Shown: positions 38,989 to 42,025 of the stretch, one piece after another | How positions within the stretch are numbered: the stretch's first letter is position 1 | Layout of the letters: each line of letters opens with the position of its first letter | Assembly (NCBI GenBank): GCA_038063415.1 | Contig: JBBTVD010000006.1 | Span: 221,882-285,881, forward strand | Source of the DNA: Patescibacteria group bacterium | Lineage (GTDB): Bacteria > Patescibacteriota > Microgenomatia > Levybacterales > UBA12049 | Direction: 5' to 3' | Length of the DNA: 64,000 nucleotides | Made by a program: the position numbers and the translations under genes | The notes under the pieces: model-generated | Database searches by the model: none | Told to the model about the DNA's origin: nothing | Seen by the model: the letters and a program-made list of their open reading frames with translations, nothing else

Positions 38989-40788
38989 CTAGGACTGTAT
39001 TTCGGCTTCAGAAACCAGATTCTCAGGTAAACGGAAAATCCCTTCATCAAGCCTTTTTTGATCAAGGAAATGAGAGATAAACCCAACAGAGCGGGAAAGC
39101 ACAAAAAGAGCGTTAAAGAATTCACTTGCCACCAGTCGCTTCAGTTCACGATCAGAGACTCCTTCTTTTTCTGACAAAAGGTCCAGAAGCACCGCAGCAA
39201 TCGCGCCATCAACATTAAGGATGAGATTACCTTTTTTTGCTGTAGTAATCTTTTCAACAGAGAGTGCAAAGTGAGTAAAGCGTTTATGTGTTAACGATTT
39301 GGCAAACTGTTCGATTTCTTTGACCCGTGGATCGGGAGCGTCACTACGATACTTTTTGTGACCAATACCGGAGATGTATTGTCTTTTACTTGCAAACTCC
39401 TCGACAAAATTAGCAGGGTCTTTTTCTGAGCTAACACCTGTCAGCCAATTGGCTGCAGCTTGGTTAATTGCTCCACCAAATCGTGGCCCAATAGTAAGCA
39501 GTCCAGCAGAAAGTGAGGAAACCAGATCGCGTCCTGCTCTTGCCGTCACAATCGTATTCATCGCTCCAGAAACGTACGGCCCATGATCAGCAAGAAGCCG
39601 TAGAACAAAATCCGTAAAGTTCTCGAGTTCTTTGGAATGGATCTTCTTGCCCAAGAACATCGACATGACCAGGGTTGCAAACGACTCTTGTTTAACAATG
39701 GTCAATAAATCTTCTCCCAAGAGTTGCGGTTGTCCGTTCTTCACTCCAGAAATACTGGTGGTGATAAGCGCCCGTTGACGATTAATAAGGCTGTCGATAT
39801 CAAAGGTATAAGCTAACCCTTCAGGCACAAAGTCTTCAGGAATTGCTTGAATTTGACTCAGAAACTCAGCGTATGAATCAGCAACCTGTGCTCCTGATTG
39901 ACGAAGCATGATTCGTTTCCCGCGAGCACTTTCTTCTTGCTTTGATGCCATAGCTTTTGCATGACCAAACTGCGGGGGAGTGACAAACATTTCAGCAACG
40001 GTTCCAGCGATATAACAAATAACTTTCTTCGTTATTTTTTTTGCTTTAAGTAGATCAGCAAGTAGCGCTTCATCCGTCCCTCCGAGTTCACCAAAATACA
40101 CGATTGTCTTGGTCTGTGGGTCTTTTTCTGCTGCCAGAAAAGCCATCTCAGGCGTCGTCATCGGGAAGCGCTCACCACCAAATGACAATGAGAAAGAAAT
40201 TCGCTTGCCATAATGGGTAACCGTATTAATAATTTCATTGGTCATTCCACCAGATGAAGATAACACCGCCACTGATCCTGGAGTAAAAAGATGTGCAGTT
40301 GTTAGTTGTCGCACGTCTACCCCACCAATGGCTCCAAGCTTCATTACCGAGGGAAGAATAATACCGATACTCGCAGGCCCAGTCAGAAAGATTTTTTTCT
40401 TTTGCGCTTGCGCGTAGAGTGCAATAGCATGTTGTTCTGGGACATTTTCGGCGAAAACAATCCCACCAATCAAAGAGGGAAGAGTAGTAAGTGCTTCTTC
40501 CGTTGAGGAAAAGGTTCTTCTCCCCGATGAGAGATTAATAAAAAAGTTTGCTTCCTCTCGAATCTTTTTGGGGACATCACTGACTGATGGGAAGACAGGG
40601 ATGAGCACTTCACGCTTTCCCCAGAAGTATCGTTCGTAATTGCGTCCTGCTGCGATAATTGCTCTGATACTTGGTTCCTTTTTCCCGGATACATAATCAA
40701 AATCAAGCATTGACTGCATGATTGCAGGATAGCTACCAAGAGCAATTACTTGCACCTGTGTTTTTCGTAATGTTTGAATGTCTAACAT
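38989..40788 (-). CDS. aclA: ATP-citrate lyase alpha-type subunit (CoA-binding plus CoA-ligase domains, fused to a citrate-synthase-like C-terminal domain)
   Basis: Phospho-His region [12 protein letters not shown]. C-terminal segments [61 protein letters not shown] and [20 protein letters not shown] mirror the ACLY citrate-synthase-like domain. The start is set at MLDIQ (40788), 1 nt after the aclB stop. ORF-track start is 40920. Confidence 0.85.
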   Translation of the reverse strand: [599 protein letters not shown]

Positions 40789-40789
40789 A

Positions 40790-42025
40790 TTAGATTGTTT
40801 TAATTGCTTTACCAATAATGTCTGGCAGGGGAGTGGTCTGGTCTCCAACAAACCCCAATAGTTTTTCTTTTTCAAGAAATGCTTCCATCTGGGCAAGTCC
40901 TTCTTCTTGATGTGGTCCACCTCGTCTGACGAATACTTGAATATGCTGCTTATGCAATGCTCCTGCTACTTCTTGTAATGCTCGTATCAGTCCACTAAAG
41001 GTAATTCGAACATCTGAAAAATTGGCAACGCCTCCAGCAATGATGAGTACTTTCTTTTTTGCTTTTGATCTCAAAAGGAGACTTACCAAATTTTTGGTAT
41101 ATAAATATACTTCTTCAGCATTGGGGTTACCACTGTATTCCCCATAGTTGGCAAGTTGTTTACCATAACCCAAATTATATCCTTCATCAGCAAGCACAAT
41201 ACTTGCCCCTCCACCGGAAAGAAGCATAAAGATGCCGCCATCCAAGTTGAGCATCTCAAGACTAAATGACGCTTGGCTTTTTTCGGACAATGCGTCTATG
41301 TTGTTTTCTTCTGTCGTTTTCTCTCTGGTCTGCGCTGCTCGGAAATCTGTTTCTGTCCAGGCATGGTGGACAAAAAAGAGTCCCGAACTATCAACTTCAG
41401 CCGCAACATCAAGCAGTGAGATGTTAGTTCCTTCCACTACCAATGGATTTATTTCAAAAAAAGAGAAATGATACTCATTAAAGGTAGAAATAAGTTTTTT
41501 TAAAAATTCTTTTGGCAAATTTAAAGCCTTTATAACTTTGTCATTCTCGCGAAGGCGGGAATCCAGCCCTGCTAAAGCACGATCCATAGATTCCGGCTCG
41601 GAGGCCGGAATGACAGGAATAAGCAGTTGATTAATTGAATTCCGATTCTCTTCAATATCGATCCCTCCCTTTACTGAAAATAACACTTCGATACCTTCAC
41701 GCGTCCGAGAAAGTGAAAGATACTTTTCTGATTCTTGTGAATGGGGGAGAAATGCTTCAATAATGACATGCGAGTATCCCTTGGCAAACAGTTTCTTTGC
41801 TTCCTTCTCTACATCAATTGACGAAACCTTCAGCGCGACAAGCCCTTGTTTCATGCGCTTTTTGACTCCTTCATCGACTTTTACGACATACGTCTGTTTC
41901 GGATCAAGTTTTTCAAGTATTTTTCTATCATCAGTTTTTGTAAAACTAATCCCCTGGTAGGGGAGACCGAGTTCTTTTGTGAGGATTCCTTTTGCACTGT
42001 ATTCACTTATTTTTTTTCGTGCCAT
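40790..42025 (-). CDS. aclB: ATP-citrate lyase beta-type subunit (ATP-grasp, SucC-like, corresponding to the ACLY N-terminal half)
   Basis: [41 protein letters not shown] and [15 protein letters not shown] correspond to the ACLY motifs [41 protein letters not shown] and IFVRRGGPNYQEGL. Confidence 0.85.
   Translation of the reverse strand: [411 protein letters not shown]

Follow-up and report, generated by a model that had tools for sequence, protein, structure and literature searches.

The locus analysed here lies in a 64-kb stretch of DNA, referred to below as the window, from a member of the Patescibacteria (CPR). It raises the question whether its closely spaced gene pair, aclB and aclA, encodes a genuine ATP-citrate lyase (ACL) and, if so, what such an enzyme does in an organism of this kind. 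The preliminary description had assigned the pair to a small low-GC genome. The host is a Levybacteria-type bacterium and its genome is indeed small, but the GC content is only moderately low (41% in the window).

Identity of the gene pair

The pair comprises the following elements:

40790..42025, minus strand: aclB, 411 aa, ATG start; ACL beta subunit (ATP-grasp and citrate-binding domain)
40786..40792, minus strand: junction of the aclB stop and the aclA start, TAA-T-ATG, read directly
38989..40788, minus strand: aclA, 599 aa; ACL alpha subunit, ligase module fused to a citrate-synthase-homology domain

Both reading frames were found as previously described (411 aa, and 599 aa counted from the ATG at 40788), and the motifs quoted in the preliminary description (89 and 12 protein letters) are all present in the translations. 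The location of both genes on the minus strand had not been mentioned there. In the list of open reading frames aclA spans 38989..40920 from an upstream GTG; starting at the in-frame ATG at 40788 yields the 599-aa protein. Direct reading of the junction (aatc TAA t ATG ttagac) confirmed that the aclB stop and the aclA start are separated by 1 nt. The tight linkage proposed earlier was also recovered in the relatives, where the two genes overlap or leave a gap of ≤10 nt in 53 of 78 cases (spacing −8, −4, −1 or +1 to +5 nt). This spacing suggests translational coupling of aclB and aclA; no Shine-Dalgarno-like motif is visible at the junction.

AclB matched the Pfam families Citrate_bind (5.9e-49, 166.4 bits, cutoff 26.8), Citrate_synth_N, which is the ATP-grasp domain of ACL (3.5e-35, 121.9 bits, cutoff 83), and ATP-grasp_2. 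AclA is built of a CoA-binding/ligase module with a phospho-His loop and a citrate-synthase-homology domain: Ligase_CoA and Succ_CoA_lig were matched at residues 170–314 and Citrate_synt at the C-terminus (residues 366–586, 1.7e-23) of the same 599-aa protein. The N-terminal CoA-binding domain, for which Pfam gave no match at E<0.01, aligns with residues 494–600 of human ACLY. In phmmer searches against the PDB, AclA aligned with human ACLY end-to-end over residues 494–1090 (E=1.5e-106, 360 bits), followed by Methanosaeta concilii ACLY-B (352 bits) and 6hxj_B (241 bits), while the scores to non-ACL proteins were 68 bits for the small subunit of citryl-CoA synthetase (CCS) and ~71 bits for the alpha subunit of succinyl-CoA synthetase (SCS); a model of ADP-forming acetyl-CoA synthetase (ACD) gave 27 bits. 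AclB behaved similarly, with 207 bits to human ACLY (4.3e-60), 190 bits to the M. concilii subunit (4.3e-55) and 128 bits to 6hxj versus 68 bits to CCS (large subunit, 7.4e-18 only) and 30 bits to SCS. The Pfam and PDB matches of both proteins are far beyond what chance would produce.

It is scarcely credible that the two proteins are ACL-like enzymes acting on another substrate, such as a variant of citryl-CoA synthetase/lyase, an SCS or an ADP-forming acetyl-CoA synthetase. NCBI labels the relatives “citrate/2-methylcitrate synthase” or “hypothetical”. The top NCBIfam names, SCS and citryl-CoA lyase, all fall far below their cutoffs and appear because NCBIfam lacks an ACL model. Against this reading, the ACL-specific Citrate_bind and Citrate_synth_N domains score well over threshold, and ACL exceeds CCS and SCS fivefold in bit score. 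Of the five listed citrate ligands, four are retained (see below), and the ligase module is joined to the lyase module, as in ACL but not in CCS/CCL. Two specific candidates were rejected. Succinyl-CoA synthetase (SucCD) models gave 99 bits for TIGR01019 (cutoff 353) and 85 bits for TIGR01016 (cutoff 376), and AclA carries a 230-aa citrate-synthase-like extension that the ~290-aa SucCD alpha subunit, being devoid of a citrate-synthase domain, does not have. The CCS/CCL system, in which the citryl-CoA lyase (CCL) is a separate protein, scored low, and the lyase domain of AclA is fused to the alpha subunit. The earlier assignment to ACL rather than SCS or ACD was therefore upheld by the domain architecture, the catalytic His, the citrate-synthase-like domain matched by Pfam and the difference of 360 versus 68/~71 bits. 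At the level of sequence, aclB-aclA is confirmed as a genuine, intact two-subunit ATP-citrate lyase.

Conservation of functional residues

The catalytic phospho-His expected in the ligase domain is present in AclA as H276, which lies in the motif QFGHAKA and corresponds to human H760. Further residues pair with human ACLY as E114/E599, H402/H900, H477/H975, R488/R986, D527/D1026 and R566/R1065. H276 and E114 are invariant in 81 Patescibacteria orthologues, and H402, H477, R488, D527 and R566 are conserved in 77–81 of them, while human R976 is replaced by K. In AclB, the counterparts of human K58, R66, E118, N203, D216, G309, N346, F347 and R379 are conserved; across 76 Patescibacteria orthologues they are either invariant or conservatively substituted.

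The citrate ligands of human ACLY, which we take from UniProt and the structure literature to be G309, N346, T348, Y364 and R379, are kept at four of five positions. G299 (G309), N335 (N346), F336 (the F347 gate) and R368 (R379) of the citrate site are identical to the human residues, T348 is conservatively replaced by S337 (T stands there in 74 of the 76 orthologues), and Y364 is replaced by V at a position that is variable across the orthologues. The roles of H760, E599, F347, H900, R1065, R976 and D1026 in ACLY have been described (PMC10115795). Considering the family to which it belongs and the residues conserved, AclBA is predicted to be a catalytically competent heteromeric ACL.

Neighbouring genes in the window

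The genes around aclBA are arranged as follows:

46737..46766, minus strand: candidate sigma-70-like promoter upstream of xfp (TTGACA-18-CAGAAT, 10/12 matches), weak
43811..46603, minus strand: xfp-CoAb, phosphoketolase with a CoA-binding protein domain fused at its C-terminus; the xfp-CoAb stop abuts the acs start
42053..43810, minus strand: acs, AMP-forming acetate-CoA ligase, 27 nt upstream of aclB
37657..38667, minus strand: murB, UDP-N-acetylenolpyruvoylglucosamine reductase (Pfam MurB_C and FAD_binding_4), 320 nt downstream of aclA
28421..37030, minus strand: aspartate-to-diaminopimelate/lysine gene set downstream of murB (Pfam and NCBIfam)

Four closely packed genes, xfp-CoAb, acs, aclB and aclA, thus make up one block, of which aclBA is the distal half. 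Promoter-like sites are no more numerous in this region than in shuffled sequences, so the site upstream of xfp is a candidate only. The assignment of acs relies on NCBIfam NF003313 (acetate--CoA ligase, 812 bits, cutoff 729) and on Pfam AMP-binding and AMP-binding_C. The product of xfp-CoAb contains XFP_N, XFP, XFP_C and CoA_binding_2 (3e-36, residues 805–919), and its C-terminal 140 aa resemble the stand-alone CoA-binding proteins 2duw, 1iuk and 2d59. The database entry for this protein, P0121, starts 8 codons later and is 922 aa long.

The diaminopimelate/lysine set includes asd, dapA, dapB, aspartate kinase, lysA (NCBIfam 307 bits, cutoff 298), a class I/II aminotransferase, a DapD-type acyltransferase (NF008808, 273 bits, cutoff 204) and an M20 deacylase; aspartate kinase was also matched in NCBIfam. 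The acyltransferase scores as a succinyl-, not an acetyl-, transferase. Two related loci (L021 and L023) carry aspartate kinase, dapB, dapA and asd downstream of aclBA, which partly overlaps the set of the window; a weak lysA-like match occurs in L023 only, and dapD and the M20 gene are missing from both. ACL may be linked to these genes through oxaloacetate and aspartate.

Distribution and inheritance

The preliminary description considered an ACL unexpected in such a lineage and suggested horizontal acquisition. Neither view was borne out. At E≤1e-10, 2527 database proteins were matched, the GTDB species genomes with close relatives number at least 290, and Patescibacteria account for every one of the best 80; the best matches with an organism in the source name belong to Levybacteria and Saccharimonadales. 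The presence of aclAB in CPR, including Saccharimonadia MAGs, is already in print (PMC12577380). In the neighbour-joining (NJ) tree the Patescibacteria AclA sequences form one clade (82% bootstrap), within which the AclA of the window belongs to a Levybacteria/Saccharimonadia subclade with 52–71% identity, compared with ~40% for the DPANN sequence. The gene order vanW-SBP-NTase-greA-[slot]-aclBA-murB-[slot]-lysS-PEGA-ubiA is common to the window and Levyibacteriota MAGs.

That aclBA was acquired recently by horizontal transfer, or is a mis-assembled or contaminant fragment, appears very improbable. ACL is patchily distributed across bacteria, and xfp-CoAb-acs, lying upstream, is ~70–75% identical across different phyla, which makes that part of the block look mobile; moreover, the GC3 of xfp, acs, aclA and murB is slightly above the window mean (z 1.0–2.9). 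However, GC, GC3 and codon usage of aclA and aclB lie within about 1.2 SD of the genes of the window, many Levyibacteriota genomes whose AclA is 60–68% identical have aclBA at this same position, between greA and murB, and the CPR sequences are a clade. No close relative was found on known plasmids or phages, and the genes flanking the block are ordinary CPR housekeeping genes. Since close relatives are present in at least 290 genomes, the composition is normal, the synteny is shared and the CPR sequences form a single clade, we concluded that aclBA is a long-standing, vertically inherited trait of the lineage, neither an oddity nor a recent transfer.

The greA-murB slot and the probable role of ACL

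Among the related loci, murB follows aclA on the same strand in 37 of 82. This adjacency could reflect a gene order inherited from a few ancestral events and not functional coupling. Further genes of this context were found near aclBA: ddl lies directly upstream in four loci (confirmed by Pfam), glmS is nearby in eight, and one locus (L086) has aclBA within a glycan cluster, behind genes for a DegT aminotransferase and a NeuD-like sugar acetyltransferase.

The greA-murB slot contains aclBA alone, tdh-kbl-aclBA, acs-aclBA or, as in the window, xfp-CoAb-acs-aclBA, and acs adjoins aclBA also in L011 and L037. The tdh-kbl route converts threonine to glycine and acetyl-CoA. These genes accompany aclBA in three arrangements, that is, upstream, downstream (L023 and L078), or as kbl with an SDR-type dehydrogenase (L051), which indicates more than inherited synteny. 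All of the neighbouring modules, Xfp, Acs and Tdh-Kbl, make acetyl units. In L089 and L091, the slot is filled by xfp-CoAb-acs without aclBA, which argues that the modules in the slot are functionally equivalent suppliers of acetyl-CoA.

On these grounds, we consider it probable that AclBA cleaves citrate and so provides envelope synthesis with acetyl-CoA and oxaloacetate, in a role resembling that of cytosolic ACLY in eukaryotes. According to the chemistry of the family, the enzyme would convert citrate, ATP and CoA to acetyl-CoA, oxaloacetate, ADP and Pi by way of phosphorylated His276, citryl phosphate and citryl-CoA. It would operate in the cleavage direction, as one among several modules that supply acetyl-CoA and can take each other's place. 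The citrate would come from the host or the surroundings. A citrate uptake system is unsupported at these loci, since a CitMHS/MatC-type carrier was found near aclBA in only one of 82 loci (L045) and none in the window. The acetyl-CoA may enter envelope steps that need it, for example the N-acetylation of amino sugars upstream of MurB, and the oxaloacetate may be drawn off through aspartate to diaminopimelate and lysine as a possible sink.

The acetyl-producing neighbours would also fit ACL as a consumer of acetyl-CoA. The reaction would then run in reverse and conserve ATP, forming citrate, CoA and ATP from acetyl-CoA, oxaloacetate, ADP and Pi, either to regain the energy held in the thioester of acetyl-CoA that Xfp, Acs or Tdh-Kbl had produced, or to replace citrate synthase at the start of a short oxidative route to 2-oxoglutarate and glutamate. 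In favour of this, the variable neighbours of aclBA all make acetyl units, and Desulfobacter postgatei provides a physiological precedent. The chemistry of ACLY is also reversible, and its D1026A mutant uses acetyl-CoA and oxaloacetate to make citryl-CoA (PMC10115795). Nevertheless, we regard this direction as unlikely. It needs stoichiometric oxaloacetate, the citrate formed could go no further without aconitase and IDH, and TCA enzymes are reported missing in CPR (PMC12577380, PMC12592800). Pairing with the AMP-forming Acs would consume more ATP than ACL yields in reverse, and slots with aclBA alone or with xfp-acs but no aclBA point to suppliers working in parallel more than to a producer and its consumer.

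In textbooks, ACL marks the reductive TCA (rTCA) cycle, and annotation pipelines place CPR aclAB under the “Arnon-Buchanan cycle” (supplement of PMC12577380). Even so, the chance that AclBA is the citrate-cleaving step of this cycle in an autotrophic organism seems very slight. No TCA or rTCA genes were found within the window, and no rTCA partner genes among the annotated neighbour families of the related loci (the commonest clusters and selected neighbours); those missing from both include 2-oxoglutarate:ferredoxin oxidoreductase, fumarate reductase and PFOR. AclA is much nearer to the human and M. concilii enzymes (360/352 bits) than to the rTCA enzyme of Chlorobiaceae (241–245 bits). CPR are described as lacking autotrophy (PMC12577380), and reconstructions of Saccharimonadia contain no TCA cycle (PMC12592800). 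The gene context, in which aclBA is accompanied by cell-wall and acetyl-CoA genes, likewise disfavours the cycle. The unusual carbon-flow scheme envisaged earlier thus plausibly consists in the supply of acetyl-CoA and oxaloacetate rather than in a reductive TCA cycle.

The supply role can be extended, more tentatively, to the view that several TCA-less Patescibacteria lineages have ACL as a core enzyme of ancestral origin, passed on vertically. These episymbionts would draw both acetyl-CoA and oxaloacetate from citrate of the host or the environment and keep an exchangeable acetyl-CoA slot beside murB, where ACL, Tdh-Kbl, Acs and the phosphoketolase-CoA-binding fusion would replace one another. 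If true, citrate would be a nutrient on which Levybacteria and Saccharimonadia specifically depend, and a handle for their cultivation.

Comparison with known systems

The closest characterised counterpart is human ACLY (PDB 6HXH, 6UUZ, 6POE, and others), which has the same order of modules as AclBA (ATP-grasp, citrate-binding, CoA-binding, phospho-His-loop ligase and citrate-synthase-homology domain) and is 37% identical to AclA and 40% to AclB over the aligned regions. H760, E599, F347, H900, H975, D1026 and R1065 are all kept, while R976, T348 and Y364 are changed to K, S and V. The proposed role, supply of acetyl-CoA and oxaloacetate outside the TCA cycle, is also the same. Human ACLY differs in being one polypeptide of ~1100 aa with a regulatory linker, whereas AclBA is encoded by two genes with a 1-nt spacer, and in receiving its citrate from mitochondria, in place of the host or environmental source suggested for AclBA.

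ACLY-A/B of Methanosaeta (Methanothrix) concilii (PDB 6HXI, 6ZNW) is likewise prokaryotic, consists of two subunits and belongs to the same sequence type of ACL, with scores (alpha 352, beta 190 bits) nearly equal to those of the human enzyme. However, its host is an archaeon with a different metabolism, and in the NJ tree it groups with eukaryote-like sequences outside the Patescibacteria clade. AclBA of Chlorobiaceae (PDB 6HXJ, presumably Chlorobium limicola; representative P0304, named Chlorobiaceae) shares the two-gene architecture and the domains, but it is much more distant (6hxj_B 241 bits and P0304 245 bits vs. human 360), lies beyond the midpoint root from the window sequence in the NJ tree, and acts in a complete reductive TCA cycle, of which there is no sign in the window. 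CCS/CCL (PDB 6HXQ, 6HXP) shares homology with AclBA in every module and carries out the same net chemistry, split over two steps, but its CCL stands alone as a protein, whereas in AclBA it forms part of the alpha subunit, and the system scores only 61–68 bits.

The ACLs of DPANN and other Patescibacteria are close two-subunit forms from ultra-small, genome-reduced lineages and are known by annotation alone; to our knowledge, none has been characterised. They include P0252, named for a Norongarragalinales archaeon, P0264, whose cluster contains a Saccharibacteria protein, and P0245 from Dojkabacteria. The AclA of the window is distinct from the DPANN form (about 40% identity vs. 52–71% within its own subclade), and eukaryotic ACLA/B are reported to branch with DPANN (PMC11976288). 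If ACL is indeed ancestral in these lineages, the CPR and DPANN clades would bear on the origin of the eukaryotic enzyme.

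Identity and arrangement of the aclB–aclA pair

The two adjacent ORFs for which a two-subunit ATP-citrate lyase (ACL) had been proposed in the preliminary description were present on the minus strand, where they belong to a tight block of four genes spaced 0, 27, and 1 nt apart:

43811..46603, minus strand, xfp-CoAb, phosphoketolase fused to a CoA-binding domain
42053..43810, minus strand, acs, AMP-forming acetate-CoA ligase
40790..42025, minus strand, aclB, ACL beta subunit, 411 aa
ATG at 40788, minus strand, aclA, ACL alpha subunit, 599 aa (the mechanical ORF call starts at GTG 40920)

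The 599-aa product was obtained from the ATG at 40788, every peptide motif quoted earlier was found in the window translations, and the junction reads TAA-T-ATG, that is, the stop and start codons are indeed 1 nt apart. We infer that the two genes are translationally coupled. They are adjacent essentially always in the 82 non-redundant loci and overlap or lie ≤10 nt apart in 53 of 78 relatives, thus coupled expression is a conserved feature. Promoter and terminator scanning of 37000..47400 gave sites no more numerous than in shuffled sequence, with one weak candidate promoter upstream of xfp and no terminator inside the block.

The beta subunit matched the ACL-specific Pfam families Citrate_synth_N and Citrate_bind, and the alpha subunit matched Ligase_CoA/Succ_CoA_lig together with the citrate-synthase C-terminal domain. 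NCBIfam, which contains no ACL model, gave only sub-threshold matches named succinyl-CoA synthetase (SCS), citryl-CoA lyase or citrate synthase (CS). Owing to this gap, NCBI calls most relatives "citrate/2-methylcitrate synthase" or "hypothetical", and for this reason they are missed by name-based surveys. Comparison against all PDB sequences ranked ACLs first for both subunits.

Bit scores of AclA and AclB against PDB sequences
Human ACLY: AclA 360 (residues 494-1090), AclB 207
Methanosaeta concilii ACLY-A/B: AclA 352, AclB 190
6hxj ACL: AclA 241, AclB 128
Citryl-CoA synthetase: AclA 68, AclB 68
SCS: AclA about 71, AclB 30

Residues were mapped position by position through HMMER alignments to human ACLY. 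In the alpha subunit, H760/H276, E599/E114, H900/H402, H975/H477, R986/R488, D1026/D527, and R1065/R566 (human/query) are kept, as are human G664/G665, and the beta subunit retains human K58, R66, E118, N203, D216, G309, N346, F347, and R379. The changes in the window proteins are T348 to S, R976 to K, and Y364 to V. Published roles are available for H760, E599, F347, H900, R976, R1065, and D1026 (PMC10115795). For the other mapped positions, the functions general to the family are assumed. The mapped positions are invariant or conservatively substituted in 76 AclB and 81 AclA orthologues of the related loci, so these proteins are under selection as working enzymes. None of the grounds for rejection named in the preliminary description applies: the citrate-synthase-like domain and the catalytic His were both found, and the proteins were placed within neither SCS nor the ADP-forming acetyl-CoA synthetases. 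Judged from these sequence comparisons, aclBA encodes an ATP-citrate lyase, as had been correctly read before; that the proteins are not really ACL, in spite of the sub-threshold names returned by NCBIfam, appears very improbable.

Distribution and origin of the ACL genes

AclA had 2527 protein matches at E ≤ 1e-10. The best of them were 60-71% identical; those whose source names an organism came from Candidatus Levybacteria and Saccharimonadales, and several carry the JGI label "ATP citrate (pro-S)-lyase". When one genome per GTDB species was scanned with two motifs of the type found in Patescibacteria (CPR), at least 290 genomes encoded a relative, the best 80 of which were all Patescibacteria (Levyibacteriota, Saccharimonadia, Magasanikbacteria, and Woesebacteria). 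With this distribution, the view that ACL is unexpected in such a host could not be maintained. The title "uncultured Gammaproteobacteria bacterium" is borne by dozens of ACL-bearing Patescibacteria MAG records that are CPR-like in gene content and synteny; it looks like a submitter placeholder or a labelling error running systematically through one series of submissions.

Representatives clustered at 50% identity were searched exhaustively; 145 matched at E ≤ 1e-30, and 54 full-length sequences were taken from them for a neighbour-joining tree (100 bootstraps, sparse organism labels). In this tree, made by a crude method and weak at its deep nodes, the Patescibacteria sequences, one from Dojkabacteria among them, grouped in a single clade (bootstrap 82%). 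Next to it branched other two-subunit forms (among them one cluster with a Saccharibacteria protein and, separately, one sequence from a DPANN archaeon), then the eukaryote-like and M. concilii-like forms, with the Chlorobiaceae and Nitrospinae forms lying across the midpoint root.

Horizontal acquisition had also been raised. In GC, GC3, and codon-usage distance, aclA and aclB stay within about 1.2 SD of the 50 genes of the window, and the closest homologue in plasmid and phage records was only 32.5% identical (a Sulfurovum megaplasmid). The gene order vanW-SBP-NTase-greA-...-aclB-aclA-murB-...-lysS-PEGA-ubiA is common to the window, Levyibacteriota MAGs, and a 1.61-Mb chromosome. The other genes scanned in the window are ordinary housekeeping genes (e.g., dnaK/dnaJ/grpE, ftsK, RNase J and Y, rpoA, secY, ribosomal proteins, and tRNA synthetases). 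Normal composition, shared synteny, the single Patescibacteria clade, and the lack of a close plasmid or phage homologue speak against recent transfer, and a recent acquisition of aclBA has only a very slight chance of being correct. We concluded that the lineage has long carried ACL as a native trait.

Variable modules between greA and murB

In the backbone of the window, the greA-murB stretch acts as a slot, the contents of which vary by genome.

Contents of the greA-murB slot in the window and in related loci (L numbers)
aclBA alone: e.g., L012, L021, L053
tdh-kbl-aclBA (threonine dehydrogenase and glycine C-acetyltransferase upstream of aclB, giving acetyl-CoA): six loci, L001, L005, L008, L020, L027, L030
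tdh-kbl downstream of aclBA: L023, L078
aclBA, then SDR-type dehydrogenase and kbl: L051
acs-aclBA: L011
xfp-CoAb-acs-aclBA: the window
xfp-CoAb-acs and a small gamma-CA/PaaY-like protein, without aclBA: L089, L091

Acetyl-CoA is the feature common to all these modules, and since they are exchanged at one position, they were read as alternative acetyl-CoA suppliers. The tdh-kbl genes adjoin aclBA in three arrangements, and an SDR/epimerase-family protein replaces the Zn-dependent Tdh in L051. The NCBIfam equivalog cutoffs were narrowly missed by Kbl (457 vs. 460) and Tdh (344 vs. 380). The small hexapeptide protein standing in the place of aclBA in L089 and L091 was considered as an acetyltransferase; this assignment was dropped, as its nearest NCBIfam models are gamma-carbonic-anhydrase/PaaY/CaiE, below cutoffs.

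The C-terminus of the phosphoketolase is fused to a CoA-binding domain of the stand-alone type (PF13380; best PDB matches 2duw, 1iuk, and 2d59). The fusion recurs in three related loci (L089, 6001-8775; L090, 6001-8772; L091, 6001-8769) and in all 120 best database matches (69-75% identity, about 915-950 aa), with Saccharimonadia, Levyibacteriota, Dormibacteraeota, and Limnocylindrales among the named sources. A literature search for such a fusion found nothing; the fusion may serve CoA sensing or the formation of acetyl-CoA in the absence of Pta. The acs gene always follows directly, with a 0-nt gap in the window, 4-nt overlaps in L089 and L090, and a longer called overlap in L091. The same order occurs on a 1.9-Mb contig among neighbours that do not look like CPR genes (a two-component system, PGM, and an archaeal-type PEP carboxylase). 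Together, xfp-CoAb and acs look like a conserved module of two genes, probably a mobile one.

Neighbourhood of aclBA

In the window, murB lies 320 nt past aclA; beyond it, still on the minus strand, come a complete set of genes from aspartate to DAP/lysine and then lysS. An 85-aa antisense ORF in the aclA-murB gap (38773..39030) was rejected as spurious, since 84 related loci lack any equivalent of it. No tRNA or Rfam match was obtained anywhere in the window.

35083..35970, minus strand, DAP-pathway acyltransferase
35945..37030, minus strand, accompanying M20 hydrolase
37166..37660, plus strand, 164-aa ORF between the dap cluster and murB
26116..28407, minus strand, class I lysyl-tRNA synthetase, 763 aa

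The acyltransferase matches the N-succinyltransferase model NF008808 (273 bits vs. cutoff 204), succinyl-CoA is not expected to be made in its host lineage, and the M20 hydrolase is PepT-like and not a clear DapE, which makes the acyl donor of the pathway uncertain. The 164-aa ORF (GC 0.327, z = -3.3) had no Pfam or NCBIfam match; it may be an orphan gene or have been inserted recently. The lysyl-tRNA synthetase carries a fused C-terminal B3_4 domain, also seen in L091 (12675-14769); in several relatives the LysRS is about 500 aa long and lacks B3_4.

Among the 82 non-redundant loci, murB follows aclBA on the same strand in 37, ddl, confirmed by Pfam, is directly upstream in four, and eight have glmS close by. 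In L086, from the sister clade, aclBA lies within a glycan-synthesis cluster, right after genes for a DegT aminotransferase and a sugar acetyltransferase of NeuD-like type. In about 27 of the 82 loci (L013-L036 and others), aclB-aclA(-murB) is directly downstream of fusA (EF-G); tuf is downstream on the same strand in 11 loci, followed by rpsJ in 10 of them. This context puts aclBA within an otherwise highly conserved translation-gene neighbourhood. Among the neighbours scanned for a citrate carrier, a candidate came from only one of the 82 loci, L045, where a di/tricarboxylate-carrier-like gene (9206-10456, minus strand; MatC_N and CitMHS) is a few genes from aclBA; the other multi-pass membrane neighbours scanned were of the EamA, MFS, and AI-2E families, and one resembled a flippase weakly.

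Possible role of ACL in Patescibacteria

According to the chemistry of the family, ATP would phosphorylate His276, citryl phosphate and then citryl-CoA would form on the synthetase module, and cleavage of citryl-CoA would give acetyl-CoA and oxaloacetate. On account of the gene context, and of CPR having been described in the literature as non-autotrophic fermenters that lack a TCA cycle, we somewhat favour citrate cleavage in which acetyl-CoA would enter envelope biosynthesis and oxaloacetate could feed aspartate, DAP, and lysine, with no part in CO2 fixation. This reading is weakened by a murB linkage that may be inherited gene order, by the finding of a CitMHS/MatC protein near aclBA in only one of the 82 loci, and by the succinyltransferase score of the dap-cluster acyltransferase. 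The main rival is an ACL working in reverse as an ATP-conserving, citrate-forming enzyme; it is rather unlikely but keeps some probability, since the reaction is reversible and all neighbour modules make acetyl units.

ACL is routinely taken as a marker of autotrophic CO2 fixation, and annotation pipelines already place CPR ACL genes under the Arnon-Buchanan (reductive TCA) cycle. Participation in that cycle seems highly improbable in hosts described as TCA-less. A conserved, intact ACL in hundreds of Patescibacteria genomes, beside cell-wall genes and interchangeable acetyl-CoA modules, therefore calls for caution in equating ACL with autotrophy. It also provides a testable hypothesis for the acetyl-CoA source of these hard-to-grow bacteria, with citrate, threonine, acetate, and sugar phosphates as possible host-derived inputs.

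Relation to earlier descriptions

Literature searches turned up no work on what ACL does in CPR and nothing on ACL together with Levybacteria. A single sentence reports the enrichment of aclAB in Saccharimonadia MAGs (PMC12577380); a table of the same paper lists aclAB under the Arnon-Buchanan cycle, with aclA in nine CPR MAGs in total and a maximum of 27% in any one class. A preprint pointed to sequences from CPR and DPANN that are wrongly annotated as SCS or CS, and eukaryotic ACLA/B were found to branch with DPANN in a 2025 study (PMC11976288). The interest of the locus lies in correcting, for CPR, the habit of equating ACL with the reductive TCA cycle, and in the testable hypothesis on acetyl-CoA supply, the neighbouring conserved phosphoketolase-CoA-binding fusion included; the enzyme family is known, and its Patescibacteria clade is already visible in databases and has been briefly noted in print.
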